From the NCBI GenBank assembly GCA_001787585.1, contig MFXW01000074.1, positions 1 to 46,053 on the forward strand: 46,053 nt of DNA, written 5' to 3'. Within the stretch, counting starts at the first letter, position 1, and every line of letters starts with the position of its first letter. The stretch comes from Candidatus Peribacteria bacterium RIFCSPHIGHO2_02_FULL_53_20. Its GTDB lineage: Bacteria; Patescibacteriota; Gracilibacteria; Peribacterales; Peribacteraceae. Below are positions 892-12,544 of the stretch, piece after piece. A program made the position numbers and the translations under genes. The notes under the pieces were generated by a model, which did no database searches, was not told where the DNA came from, and saw nothing but the letters and a program-made list of their open reading frames with translations.

Positions 892-1254
892 CTATTTCTG
901 TCTTCTTCTTGCCCTGCGATTCTTTCCGATTCCCGTTTGCATCTCCTTATACCTCTTCACCTGCGGCTCCAGTTTTTCGATGCATCGATCCACTGCTTCC
1001 ACCGGATCAGGTCTTCGGGATTCCGCGCGGAGAATCTTTTTTGGGAGTTCTATAGTGATCATCACTTTCACCTGATCGCGCTCTTTCTTTGCATCACGAC
1101 GTTGCGATTCCACGCGGATCTGAGAAGCTTCATCTTTGATCCGACCGCAATACGTTGCGAGCTTGCCGAGTTTGCGTGCAACAAGCAGAAGCTGATCTGC
1201 GGAATACTGGAATCCTTTTTCGAAGTGGGTGACGTTCATAAATGCATTCTGCAC
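892..1254 (-). CDS. hpf: Ribosome hibernation promoting factor (HPF/RaiA family)
   Basis: 120-aa ORF. The pattern ...VKVMITIELPKKILRAESRRPDPVEAVDRCIEKLEPQVKRYKE... matches the HPF/YfiA fold signature (LP..L.AE....D...A+D...+KLE.Q+.+YK). An alternative start is the MNVTHF codon at 1239. Confidence 0.7.
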   Translation of the reverse strand: MQNAFMNVTHFEKGFQYSADQLLLVARKLGKLATYCGRIKDEASQIRVESQRRDAKKERDQVKVMITIELPKKILRAESRRPDPVEAVDRCIEKLEPQVKRYKEMQTGIGKNRRARRRQK

Positions 1255-1281
1255 GGCTAGGCGTGCATTTTCAATGCATTG

Positions 1282-1310
1282 TTCAAAACGCCGTTTTCTG
1301 ATAGAATAAT
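1282..1310 (+). promoter_or_regulatory. Possible sigma70-type promoter for the 1335-8133 operon
   Basis: TTCAAA (1282-1287), 17-nt spacer, AATAAT (1305-1310), in the divergent hpf/operon intergenic region. Pattern match only. Confidence 0.25.
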
Positions 1311-1334
1311 AGTGAAATACACATCCCTCTTCTT

Positions 1335-1550
1335 ATGGTCGACCTGAGTCTTCTCCAGACGATGATTCGTGAGAGCTTACTGCTCACCGATGCCGAGCGT
1401 GCCTACTGGCTCGCCGGACTCGCGCGCATGACTCCTCCACAAGTGGATCGGCTGAAATCCATTCTCGACCGCGCACGGAATATTCCATGGAATGCGGCGC
1501 TGCAGAAAACGGTGGCGACCTTGGCAGGGGTACAAAAAACAGCAGCGTAA
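1335..1550 (+). CDS. Hypothetical small protein (71 aa), first gene of the orphan operon
   Basis: ATG-initiated ORF lying 18 nt upstream of the next ORF on the same strand. Helical-looking sequence LLLTDAERAYWLAGLARMTPPQVDRLKSIL. No family recognised. Confidence 0.5.
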   Translation: MVDLSLLQTMIRESLLLTDAERAYWLAGLARMTPPQVDRLKSILDRARNIPWNAALQKTVATLAGVQKTAA

Positions 1551-1568
1551 TTTTTTCCAAACATTTTT

Positions 1569-2735
1569 ATGGCACCCGGTGACAACATCAACAAACCAAA
1601 GAATACACCGGCGGAAATCCCGACCGATCCGATCGATCGGGCATTGTATGAGCTTCAACAGAAGAATCTCTCGCATGGGCAAATTGTCGATCAGCTTGGC
1701 AATCTCAAGCAGCAGGTAGAAAAAGGAGAAAATGGTTCGCTCAATGTGCAACGCCTACCGAAACTTAAAGAAGCTGTTCGAGAGGAAGTGGAGACTGGCG
1801 ATGAGGCTCAGGAACTTTCTAATGTTGAGAAAGAAGCTTTTCTTAAGGATCTTGATAGCCGGGTTGCTCAGATCGAACAGATTATCCAACAGCAAGCAAA
1901 CCCCGACCGCACGCCGAAGCTGGTCAAACAAGTGAAGGAAAAATTTGAGCAATCTTGGGGCAAGATCAAAGAGGGGGTGACGGCCATCGGAGAATTCATG
2001 GGAGTCACCGTACCGGAAAAAGCAGGTGATGCATGGAATTTCCTTGTGAAGCAATTCTGGAAAGTGATGGCAGCCCCGACAAGTTTCGGCATGAAGGAAA
2101 ATTTCTTTACGAAGATTGCTCAGGAGAAAGTGAACAGGATGGACATCTGGGAGGGTGTTCGTGAGTTTGGAGAACAGAATAAGCAGATAGTAATGAGCGT
2201 CTTCGAAGAGGATTGCAATAAGGCGTACAAGCAACTGGCCCCCCTTCTTGCCGGCTTTCCCGGGGCGAACATGTATGAGCGGGTTTCCGCGTATCTCCGG
2301 AAGTACGTGGCAGCGAATCCCGGAACACCAGAAAATAAAACCACCATTACCATGGAGCGATTGCTTGCAGCCAATCTCACCAATAACTTCTCCGTGCCCT
2401 CCGGCTCGCCGGAAACACAGCAGAATCTCTTTGGTATCAATGGATTGAAGCTCAATCAGAATCTTCCTCTCACTTCGCCGGTCGAGATGCAAATTGGCCA
2501 AAGTAAGATCCGTATCGCGAGCGATTCCGTGAATTTCAACAATGTGCAGTACAAGGTGAAGGTGAATGATGCACCGGCTACGGCAGCAGCTCTGACCGCC
2601 AAAGATGCCCAGAATATCGGTGCGACGGAACTACGCCACAACGGTGGAGATCTTGCCGTCAGCGTTCAGGATATTGTGAATAACCTGCAGGCAGGAAAGC
2701 TTGCGGTGAAACATCTCACGTTTGAGAAAATTTAG
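1569..2735 (+). CDS. Hypothetical protein (388 aa), charged coiled-coil-like N-terminal half
   Basis: Long ORF with protein-like composition and a 20-nt gap to the next ORF. The antisense ORFs are low-complexity. No family recognised. Confidence 0.75.
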   Translation: MAPGDNINKPKNTPAEIPTDPIDRALYELQQKNLSHGQIVDQLGNLKQQVEKGENGSLNVQRLPKLKEAVREEVETGDEAQELSNVEKEAFLKDLDSRVAQIEQIIQQQANPDRTPKLVKQVKEKFEQSWGKIKEGVTAIGEFMGVTVPEKAGDAWNFLVKQFWKVMAAPTSFGMKENFFTKIAQEKVNRMDIWEGVREFGEQNKQIVMSVFEEDCNKAYKQLAPLLAGFPGANMYERVSAYLRKYVAANPGTPENKTTITMERLLAANLTNNFSVPSGSPETQQNLFGINGLKLNQNLPLTSPVEMQIGQSKIRIASDSVNFNNVQYKVKVNDAPATAAALTAKDAQNIGATELRHNGGDLAVSVQDIVNNLQAGKLAVKHLTFEKI

Positions 2736-2755
2736 TATTCTTTTCAATTATTTTT

Positions 2756-3826
2756 ATGGGTAACAGTGATACAGCTCCGGAAAAGAAGGCAAAGTCCACG
2801 CGTGCAGAAGTACTTGGCTACGCCAAAACTGGCGTGAATAAGGAATTACTGAAGGAACAAATTGCCAAGATGGAGGGTGCAGATCGCGCCCAACTCCTGA
2901 ACGATATTAAAATGGAAAAAGACAAACTGGCGCTCGATCCGAATCTCGACCTCAGCAAGCGTCTTGTTGATCTTGAAGATGAAGTGCGGAGACAAGAGCA
3001 GAGCTTCTCACAAAGCGCGCAGGAAACCGTCGGTTCAGCTATTAACACAGGCATTGATTCACTCGCAAAAGGTGCCAAAAAGGGAACAGAGTTTGTCGGT
3101 AATCAGGTCAAAAAGGGTACGGATGCTATGGCACAAATCGGCGAGCAGGCTGTAAATATCATGAACGATCCAAATCTCTCAAAAGAGGAAAAGAGAGTGC
3201 ACGTTATTGGTCTGGCAGCCGCAGTTGCAGTTCCCGCAGGTATTCTCTATTGGGGGCTCAGTAAGCTAGCTGGCAAGGGTCTCCAATCAGGGCAAAAGCC
3301 CAGCTTGGGTCGTCGATTGCTTCAAGTGACGGGCTTCGCATTCCTTGCATCTCTGGGCGTTCGCTTTATTGCGCCGTTTGTTTCAGAGAAGCAAAAACAG
3401 TTAATTGCATCGAAGGGTTCCAGCACTGTTCCAGAAAAGAGTGTCCCTCCAAAAGATCAGCAGAAATCCCCGGAAAATCCGGCTGCGCTAGAAACTGTTC
3501 GCTTACAGGGAACTTTTCAAGGTACGGATTTGAAGGTCGTGGAAAGAGGTGGTGCACAGTTGATCAAGATCGGAGAAAAACACTTTCGCATTACGAGGGT
3601 GGGGGAGCAGCAGAATCTTGTTGGAAGTATTACAGGGATGAGAACACGAGAGCAGCCCTCACAATTAGTCTTCAATAATCTCGCTACCATTGAGGGCGAG
3701 GACTTTACAGAGGCCAAGGCAAAACTTGCTGCTGCATCTAAGGATGTAACAGTGCAAATTCCGGCTCGTGGCGGAGACCGAAGCAAGATTTTTGATTTGG
3801 AATTCACTCTCGAACAATCTGCCTAA
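2756..3826 (+). CDS. Hypothetical membrane protein (356 aa) with a two-helix hydrophobic hairpin
   Basis: K/E-rich N-terminus. Hydrophobic segments HVIGLAAAVAVPAGILYWGL and LLQVTGFAFLASLGVRFIAPFV. The C-terminal module contains VVERGGAQLIKIGEKHFRI. Confidence 0.75.
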   Translation: MGNSDTAPEKKAKSTRAEVLGYAKTGVNKELLKEQIAKMEGADRAQLLNDIKMEKDKLALDPNLDLSKRLVDLEDEVRRQEQSFSQSAQETVGSAINTGIDSLAKGAKKGTEFVGNQVKKGTDAMAQIGEQAVNIMNDPNLSKEEKRVHVIGLAAAVAVPAGILYWGLSKLAGKGLQSGQKPSLGRRLLQVTGFAFLASLGVRFIAPFVSEKQKQLIASKGSSTVPEKSVPPKDQQKSPENPAALETVRLQGTFQGTDLKVVERGGAQLIKIGEKHFRITRVGEQQNLVGSITGMRTREQPSQLVFNNLATIEGEDFTEAKAKLAAASKDVTVQIPARGGDRSKIFDLEFTLEQSA

Positions 3827-3832
3827 GTCACC

Positions 3833-4069
3833 ATGACAGAAATACCCAAATCCATCGAAGCCGGCGAATCCGAAAAAGGTCCTGTAGGGGCTGAAATTGG
3901 CTGGGTGCGTCGTGCGAGTTACGCGACGGTTAACGGTTTGAATGACGCGGTGGAATTCGCAGGTACGGCGGCTGGATACACAGTGGGACGGACATGGAGA
4001 ACGACAAGAGAAGCTGCAACGAATGTGATGAAGGGGAGACGAGGAGAAAAGTTTGGTTTGGCTGCGTGA
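3833..4069 (+). CDS. Hypothetical small protein (78 aa)
   Basis: ATG lies 6 nt after the preceding stop, on the same strand within the operon. No family recognised. Confidence 0.45.
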   Translation: MTEIPKSIEAGESEKGPVGAEIGWVRRASYATVNGLNDAVEFAGTAAGYTVGRTWRTTREAATNVMKGRRGEKFGLAA

Positions 4070-4115
4070 AACACGAGTAATTGCCCGATGGAGAATGGCG
4101 CAAATCGTGGTTTTT

Positions 4116-4124
4116 TGCTATAAT
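4116..4124 (+). promoter_or_regulatory. Possible extended -10 element (TGcTATAAT) just upstream of the giant gene
   Basis: tgctataat at 4116-4124, about 10 nt before the ATG at 4135. It would imply a very short leader. Pattern match only. Confidence 0.2.
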
Positions 4125-4134
4125 TAAGGGATTT

Positions 4135-7100
4135 ATGGCAGACAACGTCGAGATCTCTCCGGCCAATAAACTGCTCGAATTCTTCTGTGATAAAAATCAT
4201 CCCACACAGGAGTTACTCGACGAACTTCGCCGCATTACGACGACGGATCGTCCGGGAATTCTGACGACAGTACGCGAGGGACTTCAGAAGCTCGGAGCCG
4301 AGCAACAGACAATCGCTGATGACAATATGAAGCTTCTGCGTGAACGTGTTGACGCGAATGAGCAGGAAGGAGCTAAGGATCCGGAGCAACTGATATCCGA
4401 AGAAGAGGTTCTTTCTCTCAGGAGTGAACTCGATTTGCTTCGCGACAGTCTTTCGAAAGATCCTTTTGCACAAGAGGTCAAAACAAAGGAAGAATCGAAC
4501 GAAACCAATACGCCTCTGAAGCCATTAGAACAATCACGCGCACCATACGAGGAATCTGTTCCGCAGACACCTGCAAAACAGGAACAGTTGCAGAAGAAAA
4601 TTTCCGCGGCACCGGAGAAATGGTTTCCGCAATCCGCTGATCCCAGAGAGTGGACCGGCAAACAGATCGCCACTCTCTCTGCAATTACTCTAGGTGGTGT
4701 GGGGCTCTATGCGCTCTGGAAATGGATGCGTGGCGAAAAGAAGGGTGGTGCCTCAGACGAGAAACGTAGTAAGTGGAATTGGATGCTATGGGTGCCCTTT
4801 GCTGGTTTGACCGGATATCTCGGATACAAAATGTGGAACAAATACGGTCCCGGATCAAAAGAAACTGCCGATGATAAAAAAAGAAAAGATGATCGGGACT
4901 ATTTGCCTGATGCATTGCCCGATGTCATTGAAAAACCAGCAGAGGCAGTCATCGGAGGAGTAGAGCAAGGGATTGATAAGTTAGTGGAAACATTCGGCCC
5001 TGCTGCTTACGAATTGATGAATCATGAGCACACGAGTGCAGTGCTCAAGAAGAGGCAATCCGGTGAGTACAAGTCGGATGCATTGTTCTGGGCAGCAATG
5101 GTCGGAGCCATGAGTCTCGATGGTATCGATCTTGTTATTGATGAAACCGCCTGTACACTCTGGATCGGAGGCAAAGTTGTTGAATGTAACATCAAAGGCT
5201 GGAGCCAGCTTATTGAGGGGTTTGCGGATGGGCATATTGATCTTCCCGAAGGATGCGATCTGGTTGCGACGTATATCGAGGGAGTCTTTGTCTATGCGAC
5301 ATCCCTGTACGCGCTGAAGGCGGTGACCCTCAATCGTATCGGCAGAGGAGCCAATGTGATCGGGGAGGCATTCGGCTGGCCGGTCTATTCCATCACACGC
5401 GGTGCAAAAGGAACATGGCGCATTGCAAAGGGCACCGTGGAACTTGGAATTTCCAATTCTCCTACGCGCTTAGTCATTGCCCGCGAGGCAGACGCTCTTC
5501 GTCTGGAAACCAAACTGCGGCTTGGTACATTCTCCAGGCGCTTTGCTGCGGCGACTCCGGAAGGATTATGGATGCGGAAGGAATTTGTCGCAGATCAGGC
5601 CAATCGTCTTTTTCTCGCAAAGAACAGAAAGGTAAGTGAAGCTTCCATCAAGCAATTTGAAAAAGCATTTGGTCGGGCAGCTGAAGATTTCCATACATAT
5701 CTGAAACGTGTTCCTCCGGATCAATTACCAGACTGGTTTATCAAGGCCGTGAAAGCACGGTATCCCAATATTGATCCCACAAAAATCGAACTGACACACA
5801 TGGAAGGATTGATGCGCCATTTGGGAGAGGGAAGTGCAAATGTGGTCGATGCAGCACCGGATAGTGCAGATGCTCTCAATAAGGTGCCGACATCCGCTAC
5901 CGATACCTCCGCAGGCAGTCGTCTGCGTCAAGCTGCGGGTGGGGAAGTCATTGAGCCAAAACCCGAGACCGCAAAAATCACATCTTCAGCTTCGGAAAAG
6001 CCCGCATTTAATGTGGTTCGGAGAGATGGAACGGTGGTCGATGGATCGGGCAAAGTCATTGGAGAAGGAGATGTCGCCGCACAGTCTGCGAAAGCTGCTG
6101 AGCGTGCGACGGGTGCTATAGATGAAGTAACAGAGACCGCAAAAGGCGTTGCAGCCGCGGAAGTATTATCCGCAGCCGATGAAACCCGATGGAAGCAATT
6201 GCTCTCCAAATTTGGCGAAGGTGCAGAAGCACAAAATGTCCGCGCGTTCCTCGAAGCCGCTTCCGAGCAAAAACTCATCAAACTCGATGCAGAGGTATTT
6301 GCACTGATCAACGAAAGTCCCGGTGCACAAAAAATCATCACGGGTGCGGTACAAACCGGTGACGTAGCAGAAATTACCCGTGCAATGAATGCTGCGAGTG
6401 CTGCCCGCAATTTCCGAGTAGGATTGAATGCCGTCGGTGCCGCAGGCGATCTCTTTGGTGCGTACATGGCATATTGTGACTACGCTGCAAATGGCGCACG
6501 CATCGAAACAGCGATGAATTCGAAGAATGCCGCGCTTGCTGATCTTTATCGAAACGCGAATTACATTTATGGAGTTGAGGGAACGCAGAGCGCAGCCGGT
6601 CTCGCGATTGGTGGTGTTGCTATTGTGAAGGCGTATGTGGGAGGTCAAAGTCTGCTTACGGCTCTGGGTGCTTCCGGTGGACTCATCATGCTTCCGGTTG
6701 CCGCGGCTACCCTCAGTGGAGGATTCGTCTATCGCAAAGCGGAAGGAGTGACGGAGACGTGGTTGAGAACTTCCAAAGATTGGCAGAAGGCGCTTTCTCC
6801 CGGTGAGCTTTTGGAAAAGCTCAAGGAACTAGGTCCCGGCAAGCGGGGGTATTGGCAGGGGTGGGGAAAGGGCACGATTGTGGAGCAAATTATGCGAGCG
6901 AAGACGGCTGGGGAATCCGGTAATATCGGGGCGTATCAGCAATGGGAAGAGGAGGGCGAGCAGAGGATCGAGAAAGCCAATGAGAGCACGCGTTTGGAGA
7001 TTACAAAAGCGTACGTCGTCCGCACATCCTTACTTGCGAAGCAGACTGAGGAAACAGATGAGCAGTACACGCGACGCTTCGATTGCTTTGTGATGGATCA

Positions 7101-8133
7101 GATGGAATATATCGGTCGCACGACGGATGGTTCGTTCAGTTACATGCTGGGAGATACATATGCTAATGCACGTCGATACGCGGAGATGCTGGCAAAACTC
7201 CGCGACGAAGGGAAGCGTCCTGAGGAGATGCCATGGAAGAATGCATCGCAAGCGATGGATAAGCAGCGTGCGATTATAGAGTATGTCCCTGCAGAGCGCT
7301 CGCAAAAAATCCTGCAATTCAATCTGATGCAGAGAATGCCGACGCAGCTCTCTCCCGAGCAAAAGAAAACGGTTGTGAAACAAGATCTCATCCTCGCGTG
7401 CCAAGACGATTTTCTGAAGCTCGATGGTCGCATCGCATCTACGGACTTCGTTGGCACGGGAGGAACGGAAAGCGTCGGCGAAGCACAGGCGCGCTATACG
7501 GCGTCCGAATTATTCCGCGAGCGGCTCTCTGAACAGGCAGATCAATTGCTTGCGGAAGCGGCAAAACCGGAAGGACTTACTATGATTTCCTATCAGGGCA
7601 TCATCAACAAACTTGGTGTCGTGCTCGAAACAGATCCCTTGGAACTCCAGCGTATCGGTTGGAAGCGCAGATATGTACCCGATGGACGCGTCACGAATCT
7701 GGATGCAACGAAAAACCTCCTCACCGCGGAATATCAATTGCAGTCTTTGCAGGAGGAGCAAAAAACAGCGCAAACGATTGCAAAGGAAAAGACATTCTTA
7801 CCCGAAGAATTGCAGCAGGAGTGTTACGACAAGGGTAGGCTTTTGCTCCTTGAGCGGGGTGGTGCGCAGAAGGGTGATAAGTTCCAGCTGCAAATGGGAT
7901 GGATCTTCAACAAATACTTGTATGCCAGATTCGTTGACGGGCAGTGGCAGGTCGGTCTCAACCATGCGTTCATTAAGTGGGCGAATCCTGAGGGATATGC
8001 CGTGACGGGAATGGTCAATTCTTTGGGCGGAGTCGATCCCAGCACGGCTGGAAAATATAACGAAGTGATTCGCGAGCTTGCAGAAATCAATAAAAGGTAC
8101 GGTAAGAGCGTAGCCAGGAAAGAGGCCGCGTAA
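4135..8133 (+). CDS. Giant hypothetical multi-pass membrane protein (~1332 aa)
   Basis: Uninterrupted ORF; the track starts at TTG 4081 and the first ATG is at 4135 (MADNVEISPANK). Hydrophobic hairpin IATLSAITLGGVGLYALWKWM / WNWMLWVPFAGLTGYLGYKMW. A Gly/Ala-rich hydrophobic block lies around 6408-6740. The C-terminal module contains LLERGGAQKGDKFQLQMG. Confidence 0.85.
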   Translation: MADNVEISPANKLLEFFCDKNHPTQELLDELRRITTTDRPGILTTVREGLQKLGAEQQTIADDNMKLLRERVDANEQEGAKDPEQLISEEEVLSLRSELDLLRDSLSKDPFAQEVKTKEESNETNTPLKPLEQSRAPYEESVPQTPAKQEQLQKKISAAPEKWFPQSADPREWTGKQIATLSAITLGGVGLYALWKWMRGEKKGGASDEKRSKWNWMLWVPFAGLTGYLGYKMWNKYGPGSKETADDKKRKDDRDYLPDALPDVIEKPAEAVIGGVEQGIDKLVETFGPAAYELMNHEHTSAVLKKRQSGEYKSDALFWAAMVGAMSLDGIDLVIDETACTLWIGGKVVECNIKGWSQLIEGFADGHIDLPEGCDLVATYIEGVFVYATSLYALKAVTLNRIGRGANVIGEAFGWPVYSITRGAKGTWRIAKGTVELGISNSPTRLVIAREADALRLETKLRLGTFSRRFAAATPEGLWMRKEFVADQANRLFLAKNRKVSEASIKQFEKAFGRAAEDFHTYLKRVPPDQLPDWFIKAVKARYPNIDPTKIELTHMEGLMRHLGEGSANVVDAAPDSADALNKVPTSATDTSAGSRLRQAAGGEVIEPKPETAKITSSASEKPAFNVVRRDGTVVDGSGKVIGEGDVAAQSAKAAERATGAIDEVTETAKGVAAAEVLSAADETRWKQLLSKFGEGAEAQNVRAFLEAASEQKLIKLDAEVFALINESPGAQKIITGAVQTGDVAEITRAMNAASAARNFRVGLNAVGAAGDLFGAYMAYCDYAANGARIETAMNSKNAALADLYRNANYIYGVEGTQSAAGLAIGGVAIVKAYVGGQSLLTALGASGGLIMLPVAAATLSGGFVYRKAEGVTETWLRTSKDWQKALSPGELLEKLKELGPGKRGYWQGWGKGTIVEQIMRAKTAGESGNIGAYQQWEEEGEQRIEKANESTRLEITKAYVVRTSLLAKQTEETDEQYTRRFDCFVMDQMEYIGRTTDGSFSYMLGDTYANARRYAEMLAKLRDEGKRPEEMPWKNASQAMDKQRAIIEYVPAERSQKILQFNLMQRMPTQLSPEQKKTVVKQDLILACQDDFLKLDGRIASTDFVGTGGTESVGEAQARYTASELFRERLSEQADQLLAEAAKPEGLTMISYQGIINKLGVVLETDPLELQRIGWKRRYVPDGRVTNLDATKNLLTAEYQLQSLQEEQKTAQTIAKEKTFLPEELQQECYDKGRLLLLERGGAQKGDKFQLQMGWIFNKYLYARFVDGQWQVGLNHAFIKWANPEGYAVTGMVNSLGGVDPSTAGKYNEVIRELAEINKRYGKSVARKEAA

Positions 8134-8170: not shown

Positions 8171-8295
8171 TATGTCGTGCCCCTGAGCTTCACGCAGTTG
8201 GCTTCCTATCGCCGCTGCCCCCGTCAGTACGAGTACTGCACCATCAAAAAAATCCCGAAGGGGATTTCCCTTGGTGCAGCATTCGGTGCGCTCAT
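8171..8295 (+). pseudogene. Truncated 5-prime remnant of a second PD-(D/E)XK nuclease gene
   Basis: Codons for (M)PLSFTQLASYRRCPRQYEYCTIKKIPKGISLGAAFGA parallel the first ~40 codons of the intact gene at 9445 (MALSFTQLAAYRRCPRQYEYCYIKKIPKGVSPGEAFGA). The ATG at 8171 is out of frame with this reading, and homology stops near 8295. Confidence 0.7.
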
Positions 8296-8528
8296 GTTGT
8301 GGATCGTCTATTCATCCATGACATCACCCCTCAATCCCTTTGCAAGCTCACGGAAAAATTTCTGCACTTCCGCCGCAGTCACCGGGGTGACGAGATGTGG
8401 AACGATCGTCAGCCAGCAAAAGCATGAGAAATGCCCGGCGGTCTTCGGGAATCCGCAGTGCGGGGAGATGTTTTTTCAGTAACTCTCGGGGGAGTTTTTG
8501 GTCCGCCAAGGTCGTAGAGAATCGCACG

Positions 8529-9158
8529 CTATTTCAGTGCGGTTTTCTTTACTGCCTCCCGAAGAATCTGTTGCCATGTGCCGGCGAGCACGGTATCCAG
8601 CACCTTCGGTATTTCTCCTTCCAGATCATGGAAGGTCGTGAGCGCACGTAGGACAATCATCGGATTCCATCGGTCGCCGTATTTCTGCGGTCCGGCATCC
8701 AGGAGGGCACCGAGTCGGATCTCCCCCCGCAGAATCTGTGCGAGATCGATGTAATCTCGCAGAGCGGCGCGTTGGACAACGGCAATCAGTTTCATCAGAG
8801 CGATGTCCCAGACGGACGCGATGTCCACGTGCCCTTCCTGTAGCGGGGCGTGGAGGAGCGGTGGCGGATAGTTTGCGATGAAGCTCATTTTCACACCGTC
8901 GACGGTGCAGTAGAGTGTGTGACTATCCTCCGACATCAGTGTGAGAGCACCCATCTTCCTGAGGTGATCCGCAATGCCCTGCACTCCAGGGTTCGCTGAG
9001 AAGAAGTCGAAATCTACCGATAGACGATGACCGAGCTGCAGAGCCAGCCCCGTACCGCCGGCGAGGTACCACTTTGCTGATTGCAACCAATCTGCTTCTT
9101 CTGTGAGATGTCTCCATAGCCGCTGTTGTGCTTCAGGCAAGATCGCGGTGTGCATCAT
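8529..9158 (-). CDS. Nucleotidyltransferase, AbiEii/AbiGii toxin family (short form, ~209 aa)
   Basis: From MMHTAILPEAQQRL... the motif WYLAGGTGLALQLGHRLSVDFDFFS is typical of AbiEii-type NTases (GGTAL...R.S.D+DF). The longer N-terminal extension in the track is Arg-rich junk that overlaps the upstream ORF. Confidence 0.7.
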   Translation of the reverse strand: MMHTAILPEAQQRLWRHLTEEADWLQSAKWYLAGGTGLALQLGHRLSVDFDFFSANPGVQGIADHLRKMGALTLMSEDSHTLYCTVDGVKMSFIANYPPPLLHAPLQEGHVDIASVWDIALMKLIAVVQRAALRDYIDLAQILRGEIRLGALLDAGPQKYGDRWNPMIVLRALTTFHDLEGEIPKVLDTVLAGTWQQILREAVKKTALK

Positions 9159-9441
9159 TGGTAGCGGGGAGATACGACAGGATTGCGTTATCCGGTAGAG
9201 GAATATCGAAAAGGGTTTCCGCGAATGCCTTGCCCTGAGGAGTCCAAGAGCCCTTGAGCGGCGAGTGTACGGCATCCTCGATGGAACTCTCCGGGAAGCT
9301 CCGCCACATATCTTTCCATTCCTCCCAGGAGCCGTAGCAGAAGACCCGCGTGATGTAGACCTTTTCGGGTGTGCGTTCACCGGATACCCAACAGAGGCGT
9401 GGACTCATGTGCATGTGTATATTGTACCATATATACTCCAT
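9133..9441 (-). CDS. Small partner ORF upstream of the AbiEii-like gene (antitoxin-like; resembles DUF6922-type partners)
   Basis: The ORF overlaps the NTase start by 26 nt. ...VYITRVFCYGSWEEWKDMWRSFPESSIEDAV resembles the small proteins usually paired with short AbiEii genes. The start is uncertain (9441, 9414 or 9408). Confidence 0.5.
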   Translation of the reverse strand: MEYIWYNIHMHMSPRLCWVSGERTPEKVYITRVFCYGSWEEWKDMWRSFPESSIEDAVHSPLKGSWTPQGKAFAETLFDIPLPDNAILSYLPATNDAHRDLA

Positions 9442-9444
9442 ACT

Positions 9445-10323
9445 ATGGCGCTGAGTTTTACGCAGTTAGCGGCTTATCGCCGCTGCCCCCGTCAGTACGA
9501 GTATTGCTACATCAAGAAAATTCCAAAGGGAGTTTCTCCGGGGGAAGCATTTGGTGCGTCGGTGCACAATGCGCTGAAGAAGTGGGGGGATTTGGAGATG
9601 ATGCAATCCTCGGATGAGCAAGCGATTGGCGATAAGCGATTAGCGGTTAGCAGACAACCGAGGTTGTTTGTAGAGGAGCAGGAAGCTAATCGCCAACCGC
9701 TATCCGCTATCCGCTTACATGCCTTATGGCATGAACATTTTCCGTTGAATGCATTCCCAACGAGAGTCGAAGCAGACGCTGCGCGTATGAGAGGAGAGGA
9801 GTTAATGACATTGTTTTATGCATGGTGGAGCGAACGACCGCGGGAAGTGGTGGCGGTGGAGAAGGGATTTTCAATTGATATTGGCGATGAGCGGTTAGCG
9901 GTTAGCGATGAGCGGTTAGCCGCGAAAGCTACACGCTATCCGCTCATCGCTCATCGCTTCACTCTTACTGGCCGCTTCGATCGCATTGAGCGCACGCCGG
10001 AAGGTTTGCATGTCATCGATTTCAAGACGTCGCAGCCGCGGACGCAGGCGGAAGTGGATGCCGATTTGCAGCTTTCGATTTATGCACTGGCGGCGCGTGA
10101 GGATTTCGGAGAGCTGCCGGTCGTATTGTCCCTGCTCCACATCACCGAAGACGGGATTCTGGAGATGCGGACAACGCGCCATGCAGGACAAGTGCAGGAT
10201 GCGATCAAGCAGATCACAGCGATCCACGGACGGATCACCGAAAAAGATTTCCGACCGACGCCGGCGGCGGCTGTGTGTAAATGGTGTCCGTATAAGGGAG
10301 TGTGTGACGTGGCGGCGGTGTAG
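9445..10323 (+). CDS. PD-(D/E)XK nuclease with Cas4/AddB-type Fe-S cysteines (RecB-family exonuclease)
   Basis: N-terminal Cys in YRRCPRQYEY. Nuclease motifs GRFDRIE, VIDFKTSQ and QLSIYALA. C-terminal CKWCPYKGVC. The start is taken at the ATG at 9445; the upstream extension in the track overlaps the minus-strand genes. Confidence 0.8.
   Translation: MALSFTQLAAYRRCPRQYEYCYIKKIPKGVSPGEAFGASVHNALKKWGDLEMMQSSDEQAIGDKRLAVSRQPRLFVEEQEANRQPLSAIRLHALWHEHFPLNAFPTRVEADAARMRGEELMTLFYAWWSERPREVVAVEKGFSIDIGDERLAVSDERLAAKATRYPLIAHRFTLTGRFDRIERTPEGLHVIDFKTSQPRTQAEVDADLQLSIYALAAREDFGELPVVLSLLHITEDGILEMRTTRHAGQVQDAIKQITAIHGRITEKDFRPTPAAAVCKWCPYKGVCDVAAV
9622..9719. repeat. In-frame palindromic module 1: tandem heptamers GCGATTG GCGATAA GCGATTA GCGGTTA, spacer, inverted heptamers GCTAATC GCCAACC GCTATCC GCTATCC
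   Basis: Read directly from the sequence. The arms pair imperfectly, with purine transitions. A central mini-hairpin reads acaacc ga ggttgt. Confidence 0.8.
9884..9962. repeat. In-frame palindromic module 2: GCGATGA GCGGTTA GCGGTTA GCGATGA GCGGTTA, 14-nt loop, GCTATCC GCTCATC GCTCATC
   Basis: gcgatgagcggttagc (9905-9920) pairs with gctatccgctcatcgc (9935-9950) at 15 of 16 positions. It encodes GDERLAVSDERLAAKATRYPLIAHR. Confidence 0.85.
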
Positions 10324-10816: not shown

Positions 10817-12544
10817 ATGCTCCAGTCCCAGATTTTCGCAAAGACTTCCAAATCCTCCCGCGCGGACGCCGAGAGCGTGAATGCCGATCTCCTCACGCGC
10901 GCGGGTTTCATCAACAAAACCATGGCCGGCGTTTACTCTTTTCTGCCGCTCGGATGGCGTGTACTCCGGAATATCGAAAATCTGCTCCGGGAGGAAATGG
11001 ATCCGATCGGGGCAGAAGTATTCCTCCCGTCCCTGACACCATTTGAACAGTGGGAAAAGACGGGAAGGCTCAACTCTGTCGGTATTCTGTTTCAGGCATG
11101 CGCGGCAAACGATCTCGGAAGGAAGATTCACGATGCGCATTACGTCCTCAATTCCACGCACGAGGAAGTGATCACGCCGCTCGTACAGTCCTTTGCGGTA
11201 AGCCACAAAGATTTTCCCTGTGCTGCGTACCAGATCCAGACGAAATTTCGCAACGAAGCGCGCGTGAAATCCGGATTACTCCGATGCCGCGAGTTTCGCA
11301 TGAAGGATCTCTACAGCTTTCATACATCAGAGGAAGACATGCTCGATTACTTCTTCCACAAGGCGATTCCCGCCTATACCCGGTTTTTTGATCGTGTTGG
11401 ACTCGGCGACCGCACGGTCATCGCGCTCGCCTCAGGGGGAGACTTCAGCAAGGAGTACTCGCGGGAATTCCAGACGCTCTGCCCTATGGGGGAAGATCAG
11501 CTTTTCCAGATTCCGGGAACAGATACGTACTACAACCGTGAGGTTGCGCCGAGCAAAGCAATTCTCTGGGGTGATCCCAAGGAGAAAGAGTTGCCGCGCA
11601 GGGATGTGACAGGGAAAGGGATCATTGGTGTCGCCGAACTTGCTGCATTCCTGAAAATTGAAGTAGAGCGCACGACGAAAACGCTGCTCTTCTCTTCCGA
11701 CAAGGGCTTTGTCGCAGCGATGGTGCGCGGCGGATACGACGTGAATGAGGAGAAGCTCCGAAAAGTTGTTGGTTGTTCCAACATGCAGCTGGCATCCGCT
11801 GAGGAGGTCAAAAAACTCACAAAGGCTGAAGTCGGTTACGCCGGACCCATCGGTCTCCCATCATCGGTTCATCTTGTATGGGACGAATCCACAGCTCATC
11901 GGAAGAACTTCGAGTGCGGAGCGAACGAAACCGACAAACACACGACCAATGCGAATTTCAGCCGGGATGTCGCCGTTCCGGAACAATTTTACGACATCAA
12001 AGTCGCGCGGGAAGGGGATCTGGACCCCGAAACGGGAAAGCGTTACGACGTGCACCGTGCTGCGGAGGTGGGGAATGTCTTCACGCTTTACACGAAGTTC
12101 TCTGATGCGTTCGGATTCCAGTTTACGGATAAAGATGGCAAGGAGAAGCCGGTGTACATGGGCTGCTACGGCATCGGCACATCCCGGATCATGGGAACCC
12201 TTGCAGAGGTTCTTCACGACGATGCGGGACTTCTGTGGCCTTCTGCTGTCGCACCGTTCCATGTCCATGTTCTGCCGTTTGCGAAAACCAAGGAGGAAGA
12301 ATCGTTCATCGTGGCAATGGATCTCGCCGGATCCATGGAGAAGACCGGTCACACCGTGCTTGTCGATGATCGACTGGATGTTTCCGCCGGTTCCCGCATG
12401 GCGGATAGTGATCTCATCGGCATTCCGAAGCGGATCGTTGTTTCCCAGAGGAGCCTTCAGGCGGGTGGGGCAGAAGTGAAAGATCGGCTCATCGGCACTG
12501 TCAACATTGTTCCATTGGATGTGCTGGTGCGAGAAGGTGTATAG
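10817..12544 (+). CDS. proS: Proline--tRNA ligase (bacterial type with insertion domain)
   Basis: MLQSQIFAKTSK..ADAESVNADLLTRAGFI..MAGVYSFLPLGWRVLRNIE. Class II motifs FRNEARVKSGLLRCREFRMKD and GCYGIGTSR. Confidence 0.92.
   Translation: MLQSQIFAKTSKSSRADAESVNADLLTRAGFINKTMAGVYSFLPLGWRVLRNIENLLREEMDPIGAEVFLPSLTPFEQWEKTGRLNSVGILFQACAANDLGRKIHDAHYVLNSTHEEVITPLVQSFAVSHKDFPCAAYQIQTKFRNEARVKSGLLRCREFRMKDLYSFHTSEEDMLDYFFHKAIPAYTRFFDRVGLGDRTVIALASGGDFSKEYSREFQTLCPMGEDQLFQIPGTDTYYNREVAPSKAILWGDPKEKELPRRDVTGKGIIGVAELAAFLKIEVERTTKTLLFSSDKGFVAAMVRGGYDVNEEKLRKVVGCSNMQLASAEEVKKLTKAEVGYAGPIGLPSSVHLVWDESTAHRKNFECGANETDKHTTNANFSRDVAVPEQFYDIKVAREGDLDPETGKRYDVHRAAEVGNVFTLYTKFSDAFGFQFTDKDGKEKPVYMGCYGIGTSRIMGTLAEVLHDDAGLLWPSAVAPFHVHVLPFAKTKEEESFIVAMDLAGSMEKTGHTVLVDDRLDVSAGSRMADSDLIGIPKRIVVSQRSLQAGGAEVKDRLIGTVNIVPLDVLVREGV

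Follow-up and report, generated by a model that had tools for sequence, protein, structure and literature searches.

Genes at the locus

The stretch of DNA analysed here, called the window, comprises 46,053 nucleotides (nt) of Candidatus Peribacteria bacterium RIFCSPHIGHO2_02_FULL_53_20 (contig MFXW01000074.1, assembly GCA_001787585.1), an uncultured bacterium of the candidate phyla radiation (CPR) from groundwater of the Rifle aquifer, and several Rifle contigs were 99.5-99.9% identical to it. Near its start lie five genes, designated g1 to g5, the last of which encodes a giant protein of 1332 amino acids (aa). The analysis showed that this giant belongs to a new protein family and keeps a fixed place in the class Peribacteria beside a small protein and one or two accessory proteins, and it led us to the tentative proposal that g2 to g5 specify an envelope scaffold. 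An earlier note, made from the letters of the window, had described the five genes as an orphan operon of a small-genome bacterium, and the CPR affiliation agrees with that view of the host. The genes, in window coordinates, are as follows (TM, transmembrane).

1335-1550, plus strand: g1, 71 aa, small helical protein
1569-2735, plus strand: g2, 388 aa, helical accessory protein rich in E/K/Q, no TM segment, C-terminal ~110 aa beta-rich
2756-3826, plus strand: g3, 356-aa accessory protein with an N-terminal coiled-coil-like region, a TM hairpin, a Pro/Lys-rich linker and a beta-rich C-terminal module
3197-3388, plus strand: helical hairpin of g3, residues 148-211, with a basic loop holding 5 K/R and 0 acidic residues (hydropathy scans)
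3833-4069, plus strand: g4, 78 aa, Gly/Ala/Thr-rich, the conserved partner directly 5' of the giant
4135-8133, plus strand: g5, 1332 aa, giant alpha-helical membrane-anchored protein

The coordinates, sizes, strand and intergenic gaps (18, 20, 6 and 65 nt) were all as previously described. The open reading frames (ORFs) are not chance occurrences, because the same five genes were called by gene callers in public assemblies and homologues were found for all five proteins. A TTG codon at 4081 would allow a g5 of 1350 aa; the homologues begin at the ATG ('MADNVD', 'MADSVE'). The translation of the two small ORFs, a point raised for checking by the earlier note, was examined through codon differences from related loci (numbered with the prefix L below). 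The comparison of g1 with its counterpart in L007 gave 29 synonymous and 4 non-synonymous differences, and that of g4 with its counterpart in L011 gave 26 and 16, a pattern indicative of purifying selection on both.

One tRNA and no further Rfam match were detected in the window, and the scan for promoters and terminators returned counts no better than in shuffled sequence. The G+C content was ~0.49 at 1001-6000, from g1 to the first half of g5, and 0.52-0.57 across most of the window. The lower value fits Lys/Glu/Asn-rich coding and is by itself no evidence of foreign origin.

A new family of giant proteins

The searches of Pfam, NCBIfam, PHROGs, PADLOC and the PDB sequences, with single queries or profiles, gave no significant match for any of the five proteins, in agreement with the initial failure to assign them to known families. 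The best matches in the family searches were coiled-coil noise well under the curated cut-offs. In PADLOC, the sole match was JetC/MukB-like coiled-coil noise for g2 (E 0.0013, 14.7 bits), with none for the other four proteins. Five divergent giants searched at full length gave nothing in Pfam at E <= 0.01, and the Pfam scan of 36 further giants gave only scattered sub-threshold matches. No relatives of g5 were detected on IMG/VR viral contigs or in phage genomes. We found no paper on the giant family in the literature; the giants described in the Peribacter genome paper are Cys-rich and exported with signal peptides, and form a different set (PMC4736985).

The exhaustive HMMER search with a profile of the C-terminal half of g5 (residues 685-1332) detected 137 family members at E <= 1e-3, 76 of which reached E <= 1e-30, all counted as representatives of clusters at 50% identity. 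Nearly all of them are 1000-2400 aa long and carry the profile match in their C-terminal half. The members that carry an organism name are annotated 'hypothetical protein' and belong to Peribacteria, Peribacteraceae or Peregrinibacteria, or are listed as unclassified 'bacterium'. The giant family is new and not a member of any known family, and all of its named members so far come from the phylum Peregrinibacteria. With at least 137 such clusters, the giant can no longer be called an orphan. The word-indexed search had made g5 and g3 look like near-singletons, with at least 4 relatives of g5 and at least 1 of g3, and at least 13 matches were obtained by the same kind of search with a 45-sequence profile; the exhaustive HMMER search overturned this view for g5.

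The domain profile built from 72 members matched g5 at E 4e-174, and the 15 giants examined in the retrieved loci had one copy of the domain each. The features that define the family were both found in g5, namely the all-alpha domain of ~480 aa (residues ~705-1185) and the N-proximal helical hairpin with a basic loop (residues 177-237). The motifs of the family domain are G..GD.FG..MA..D...N..RI, T.N.AL..LY, a Gly/Ala hairpin ending in LP, R..... AY and A...AEL.

Two observations concern individual loci. An ORF of >2651 aa without a Pfam domain lies directly 5' of the family giant P0053 (2221 aa) in L015 (1-7892), and it was rejected as a family member since the family domain is absent. The apparent indels or phase variation in L003 (1324-aa giant; 5994-6015) and L005 (split into 167 + 1128 aa; ~3072-3108 and 3652-3662) were runs of N in scaffold gaps.

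Architecture of the giant

The giant was divided into the following parts.

4135-4662, plus strand: N-terminal charged, coiled-coil-like or disordered region, residues 1-176 (alignment, composition)
4663-4845, plus strand: hairpin 1, residues 177-237, two uncharged helices of 16-18 residues, Trp-rich at their ends, joined by a basic loop of 20 aa
4846-6231, plus strand: variable middle region, residues 238-699, replaced in the family members P0002 and P0003 by a different, longer module
6232-7704, plus strand: conserved all-alpha domain, residues 700-1190 (AlphaFold2 model, profile coverage across the family)
6589-6735, plus strand: hairpin 2 within the conserved domain, residues 819-867, hydrophobic, helical, rich in Gly/Ala and tightly turned
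7705-8133, plus strand: C-terminal region, residues 1191-1332, containing a small beta element and ending in Ala-Ala

This plan recurs across the family with an N-terminal charged region of 100-190 aa. The design of hairpin 1 was found in 69 members, with uncharged helices of 15-20 residues and a loop of ~25 aa on average that holds 6.7 K/R; the Trp flanks are a feature of g5 and its close relatives, and the motif EW[TS]GKQIAT precedes the hairpin in g5 and the closest ones. The middle region varies from 400 to 900 aa, and whole modules differ there between P0002/P0003 and g5/P0004/P0005. Hairpin 2 keeps a conserved G/A/P pattern. The C-terminal ~150 aa of g5 are common to only about 20-30 family members. 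Hydropathy bore out the hairpins predicted earlier in g3 and g5 as well as the second Gly/Ala-rich block of g5. The term 'multi-pass' did not survive, as the giant has two helical hairpins, and ~90% of it was predicted to be soluble alpha-helix.

The AlphaFold2 model of residues 700-1190 from a 45-sequence alignment reached a mean per-residue confidence (pLDDT) of 85.9 and a predicted TM-score (pTM) of 0.83. It consists of 23 helices and is all-alpha, and the sole stretch of low confidence is the Gly/Ala hairpin (model residues 120-149). The model of residues 162-1332 from five sequences had a pLDDT of 39.8 and, being of low confidence, was left out of the fold search; it displayed a mixed alpha/beta middle region and beta strands at about residues 1244-1281. 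The Foldseek search with the conserved domain, a method weak for long all-alpha proteins, found no relative: the best E was 0.99 against 350,542 PDB chains, with TM <= 0.17, and 0.31 against BFVD. The modelled domain may have a fold not seen among solved structures, possibly a new one. The conserved residues are G768, D772, N786, N798, P854, D882, R953, A959, Y960, R981 and A1012, with no His or Cys among them, and such Gly/Ala/Asn/Asp/Arg/Tyr/Pro columns suggest helix packing rather than a catalytic site.

The C-terminal Ala-Ala, located at 8125-8130 in the window, was found in 32 of 118 full-length giants (...KAA, ...LAA, ...QAA) and in 6 of 170 background ORFs; the Ala-Ala is conserved and the residues before it are not. 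It may serve as a C-terminal degron of the ssrA kind or as a signal for processing. Other proteins of the locus have the same ending: AA closes g1 and g4 of the window, and the ribosome hibernation factor HPF, encoded upstream, ends in LAA or EAA in L016, L018 and L020.

Small and accessory proteins

The conserved small partner g4 has positional equivalents 5' of the giant in L007/L013, L011, L014, L016, L018 and L020. The identity to g4 of the window was 79% in L011, 58% in L007, 31% in L014 and 32% in L018, and the equivalent in L016 gave no BLAST match to it. The equivalents in L016 and L020 were assigned mainly by position and size, and the rows of L016, L018 and L020 sat in the g4 profile used.

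The homologues of g2 are a protein in L011 (48%) and a 399-aa protein in L007 (28% over the N-terminal 150 aa). Only two homologues of g3 were recognised by sequence (P0007, 52%; L011, 40%), and proteins built like g3 stand at its place in three loci, with 434 aa in L014, 422 aa in L016 and 770 aa in L024. The shared build that had been claimed for g2, g3 and g5 held for composition and architecture but not for ancestry, as BLASTP, jackhmmer and hhalign detected no homology among the three. A recurring motif seen by eye in their C-terminal beta modules (I.I.G..W/Y.V ... LEF....S) was likewise unsupported by BLASTP, hhalign (probability 0.7%) and jackhmmer, and the idea of a common origin of these modules was abandoned.

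Conserved gene order and rapid divergence

The gene order was compared among seven distinct Peribacteria loci with an intact upstream side (the window, L007/L013, L011, L014, L016, L018 and L020). All seven showed the same order, in which one or two coiled-coil accessory proteins (266-434 aa) are followed by a small protein (65-107 aa) and the giant. The order was kept at 25% identity of the giant in L014, and also in L020, where the giant is detectable only with a profile (E ~1e-14). The flanks are also preserved. HPF, encoded on the minus strand, lies upstream in the window, L007/L013, L016, L018 and L020; the nearest identified upstream gene in L014 is L25, and the contig of L011 begins too late to show that side. 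Downstream, a PD-(D/E)XK nuclease gene or another gene is followed by DUF212 wherever the contig reaches, and the gene for prolyl-tRNA synthetase (ProRS) is the last of the block in the window, L007/L013, L014, L016, L018 and L020. Conservation of the five-gene order was the earlier note's own test. The order from the accessory genes onwards is kept across the class Peribacteria, and a similar arrangement exists in another Peregrinibacterium.

This last case is L024 (1-14806; GCA_964562645.1), which carries two divergently oriented giants of the family. One of them, of 2376 aa, is preceded by proteins of 770, 135 and 127 aa without a Pfam domain. The 770-aa accessory protein has an N-terminal helical region, a hairpin and ~570 aa of C-terminal T/N/G/A/V-rich beta repeats. 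The second giant was called as 714 + 1601 aa, probably a split gene of 2324 aa (compare P0145).

The cluster and its flanks differ in their rates of change. Between the window and L007, the identity was 84% for 7TM_transglut, 90% for HPF, 83% for DUF212 and 64% for PD-(D/E)XK in the flanks, and 58% for g4, 40% for g5 and 28% for g2 (N-terminal part only) in the cluster, where g3 has no counterpart in L007. The module thus appears to evolve much faster than its surroundings, which suits coiled-coil or structural proteins, or interface proteins.

The first gene behaved differently. The identity of the g1 protein to its counterparts in L007 and L011 was 94-96%, against 40-71% for the giant, and g1 was found only in the clade of the window, L007/L013 and L011 and in three metagenome fragments (L021-L023). 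In all loci that show this flank, namely the window, L007/L013 and L022 (120-856), it lies divergently beside HPF. As it is restricted to one sub-clade and changes at a housekeeping-like rate, g1 was not counted in the module. It is a real gene that probably lies outside the module, and its link may be to HPF and not to the genes downstream.

Neighbouring genes and the AbiE cassette

Three neighbouring features of the window are relevant to the interpretation.

892-1254, minus strand: HPF, ribosome hibernation factor (Ribosomal_S30AE), divergent, Pfam E 7.6e-11
8529-9441, minus strand: AbiEii-type toxin and a small upstream gene, an inserted cassette, Pfam AbiEii E 2e-12
9445-10323, plus strand: PD-(D/E)XK (Cas4-like) nuclease gene, Pfam PDDEXK_1 E 7e-33, the equivalent of which lies directly 3' of the giant in L007, L011, L013 and L016

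The AbiE cassette is absent in L007, L011, L013, L016, L018 and L020. In the window, it is bracketed by a duplication of ~115 nt of the 5' end of the PD-(D/E)XK gene with ~85% identity (8177-8296 versus 9445-9563), and the truncated copy ('MPLSFTQLASYRRCPRQYEYC...') stands directly after the giant. Because the relatives mostly lack the cassette and the duplication brackets it, we read it as a strain-specific insertion that duplicated its target. The proximity to a defence locus, on which the initial description had remarked, is thus an artefact of the AbiE insertion and not a conserved neighbourhood; as a defence gene, the giant itself had no match in PADLOC.

Similar genes are found beside the giants of closely related strains. 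Two AbiEii/AbiEi cassettes flank the one in L010 (134-1427 and 5941-6794), and HicA and Fic genes the one in L012 (556-783 and 6756-7769). These toxin-antitoxin (TA) and Abi genes displace the upstream partner genes, and the flanks of the giant seem to be a recurrent landing site for TA cassettes.

The ProRS in the downstream slot is not of the same type in all loci. The window encodes a bacterial-type enzyme of 575 aa with an editing domain (tRNA_edit; 10817-12544). Enzymes of ~475 aa with ProRS-C_1, ~31% identical to that of the window over ~155 aa, are encoded in L007 (15207-16634), L010 (8648-10072) and L016 (16638-18068), and the DUF212 proteins beside the ProRS are 82-83% identical in L007/L010 and 63% in L016. 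The difference looks like in-place gene displacement.

Comparison with known systems

The closest systems by analogy are the coiled-coil scaffolds, such as HMW1/HMW2/P200 of Mycoplasma, EzrA and Scy/FilP/DivIVA. The terminal-organelle proteins of Mycoplasma, small-genome and host-associated bacteria, build an attachment organelle. Like these scaffolds, the proteins of the module are large, lineage-restricted, E/K/Q-rich and helical, some of them membrane-anchored, and they are encoded with small partners, presumably non-enzymatic and fast-evolving. Unlike them, they gave no EzrA, DivIVA or spectrin-like match in Pfam, or in Foldseek for the g5 domain, and the giant has two hairpins and a compact 490-aa helical domain instead of a long continuous coiled coil. 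PspA/Vipp1/ESCRT-III, DivIVA, EzrA and flotillin were absent from the Pfam and NCBIfam matches and, for the g5 domain, from those of Foldseek in the PDB; g2-g4 were compared by sequence only.

The g3-type accessory proteins resemble TolA/TonB-type proteins by analogy, in that a spacer rich in Pro or Lys/Ala links a membrane anchor to a small beta-containing domain at the C-terminus. They differ in having a hairpin in place of a single N-terminal TM helix and a coiled-coil region of 150 aa before the anchor; no TonB_C or TolA match was found in Pfam, and no ExbBD or TolQR genes nearby. The chlamydial Inc proteins, type III secretion substrates inserted into the host membrane, have in their bilobed hairpin a comparable design of two hydrophobic helices of ~18-20 residues with a short loop and with coiled-coil-rich soluble parts on the same side. 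There is no homology to them, however, and no type III secretion gene in the window or the related loci.

Phage tape-measure proteins are likewise long and mostly helical with internal hydrophobic segments, but there was no PHROG match, the best BFVD match had E 0.31 and TM 0.13, and no phage genes lie around. LXG/WXG100 proteins of type VII secretion had no Pfam match for g1, g4 or g5, and no ATPase gene was seen in the examined loci. A multi-pass transporter or channel is not indicated either, as only two hairpins are present, the second being weakly hydrophobic, with no transporter match in Pfam or above noise in Foldseek.

Interpretation and alternatives

We propose that g2-g5 encode a vertically inherited, Peregrinibacteria-specific, non-enzymatic, membrane-anchored complex that serves as an envelope scaffold, and assign this reading a probability of roughly 0.4. 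The core of the module would be the giant and the small protein encoded just upstream. Two hairpins would hold the giant in the cytoplasmic membrane, the first following the N-terminal coiled-coil region and the second, Gly/Ala-rich one protruding from the compact all-alpha domain of ~490 residues. The accessory proteins would be coiled-coil proteins ending in small beta modules, one of them with its own hairpin, and the assembly would form a structural scaffold organising shape, division or a contact site. In our view the module is neither enzyme nor toxin, and neither a defence system nor a mobile element. The analysis showed the genes, the family and its confinement to one group among named members, the gene order, the helical anchors, the rates of divergence and the lack of sequence or structure matches to known families; complex formation, the structural role and the location are what we infer.

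The arguments on topology come from hydropathy, composition and inspection by eye. They support the putative membrane anchorage of g3 and g5. A cytoplasmic location of the soluble parts is favoured by the lack of a signal peptide by eye, the charged N-terminal regions of 150-190 residues, the TM-less g2 and the E/K/R/L-rich composition.

Several points weigh against the proposed scaffold. By the positive-inside rule, the basic hairpin loops of g3, g5 and the 69 relatives place the loop inside and the termini outside; the Pro/Ala-rich or Pro/Lys-rich linkers before the beta modules of g3 and of the accessory proteins in L011, L016 and L018 favour export, and the accessory protein of L024 has T/N/G-rich beta repeats that look exported. 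The side of the membrane on which the soluble parts of g3 and g5 lie thus appears ambiguous. The giants of L010 and L012 have no adjacent g4 and TA/Abi cassettes in its place, and those of L017 and L019, from other Peregrinibacteria, stand alone near the genes for SecE, NusG, signal peptidase, MurJ and a Mur ligase. As to a single transcription unit for the five genes, the gaps were correct, but the tight co-directional spacing continues in relatives to PD-(D/E)XK, DUF212 and ProRS, so that spacing alone cannot delimit a five-gene operon or define its boundary. The one pointer to a complex is co-conservation, the label 'structural' is drawn from the lack of enzyme signatures, and the low power of Foldseek for all-alpha proteins of this length bears on the fold comparisons.

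The topological signals also speak for an alternative, raised in the earlier note, that we consider unlikely and still take seriously, namely that the assembly is an envelope-spanning surface or host-contact apparatus. The loops would be cytoplasmic, the second helices would act as signal anchors, and the beta modules and most of the giant would lie outside and attach to the host. The basic loops in the 69 members and g3 fit such a loop-in, C-out arrangement, as do the linkers before the beta modules and the ~570 aa of repeats, typical of exported proteins, in the 770-aa accessory protein of L024. The fast divergence of the cluster with module swaps in the middle region of the giant would also be in keeping with it, and so would the position of the L017/L019 giants near SecE, signal peptidase, MurJ and the Mur ligase. 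Peribacteria are inferred symbionts with a heavy investment in surface proteins, yet the large surface proteins of Peribacter are Cys-rich with signal peptides and represent a different set (PMC4736985). No signal peptide was seen by eye at any N-terminus, and export of the highly charged N-terminal regions of 150-190 residues would be demanded. Moreover, g2 has no TM segment, the composition of the proteins is E/K/R/L-rich like that of cytoplasmic helical proteins, and the Pfam and NCBIfam scans revealed no adhesin, Ig-like, SLH, pilin or secretion domain. The surface, pore or secretion role put forward in the earlier note found no backing, as neither a signal peptide by eye nor a match to a secretion, adhesin or pore family was obtained.

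A second alternative, which we regard as rather improbable, denies that there is a complex: in a compact genome, the genes would be mere co-directional neighbours, with the giant working alone and g1-g4 being unrelated, fast-evolving, lineage-specific proteins. The same-strand packing that extends to the downstream housekeeping genes agrees with this, together with the different distribution and rate of change of g1, the partnerless giants in L010, L012, L017 and L019 and the lack of homology linking g2, g3 and g5. It is opposed by the g4-like gene found directly 5' of the giant, with accessory genes before it, in seven of the seven intact Peribacteria loci, by the elevated rate of divergence common to the accessory proteins, the small protein and the giant, and by the comparable arrangement in L024; the exceptions in L010 and L012 are explained by the TA-cassette insertions.

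It is very unlikely that the giant is a pore-forming or translocator-type toxin, the Gly/Ala hairpin of which would insert as in colicins or RTX toxins with the small proteins as chaperones. The likeness is a Gly/Ala-rich hairpin of ~45 residues flanked by amphipathic helices within an all-alpha domain, and small helical proteins are encoded upstream. The RTX family PF02382 matched at the hairpin of the L014 giant (16.1 bits, E 0.009) and in 2 of 36 members (best E 0.0015), far under its gathering score of 26.8 bits, and gave no match for the window protein; an RTX identity was rejected on these grounds and the likeness kept as an analogy. Neither Ca-binding repeats (no HemolysinCabind match in Pfam) nor type I secretion or acyltransferase genes were found, the latter among the neighbours HPF, PD-(D/E)XK, DUF212 and ProRS, and no colicin or RTX structure was among the Foldseek matches. 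The giant further occupies the same conserved chromosomal slot wherever examined in Peribacteria, with no immunity gene and no type I or type VII secretion gene, and its C-terminal half is the conserved part, not a polymorphic C-terminus.

That the cluster is a system of anti-phage defence, or what remains of a mobile element or prophage (tape-measure-like, for instance), is scarcely credible and was largely refuted, since the AbiEii and PD-(D/E)XK genes downstream in the window, the TA/Abi cassettes beside the giant in L010 and L012 and the tape-measure proteins as top BFVD matches (E 0.3 or worse) are outweighed by the searches of PADLOC and PHROGs, which gave nothing but one coiled-coil noise match, by the lack of relatives on IMG/VR viral contigs or phage genomes (plasmids were not searched), by a position among housekeeping genes that does not change across the class Peribacteria, including the same slot in the seven loci, and by the AbiE cassette being demonstrably an insertion with no integrase or phage genes nearby.

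A bolder idea, which is doubtful, goes beyond the proposed scaffold. The module might be an apparatus that spans the envelope, is confined to Peregrinibacteria and has an unsolved fold at its base, with a function in the organisation of the episymbiont or in host contact; its fast evolution would then reflect host adaptation and the terminal Ala-Ala proteolytic control.

Significance

The organisation of the envelope and the interaction with hosts are largely unknown in CPR bacteria such as Peregrinibacteria, and most of their lineage-specific genes are unannotated. An apparent orphan has here become a defined family of giant membrane-anchored proteins with a fixed slot in Peribacteria, a conserved small partner and fast-evolving accessory proteins, and it provides a concrete target for structural biology, metaproteomics and cryo-electron tomography of groundwater CPR bacteria. 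If the giant is merely a lineage-specific structural protein, the family would still be a useful marker and possibly a new fold. If the module is indeed a scaffold of the cell surface or of a contact site, it would represent a new kind of bacterial envelope machinery.

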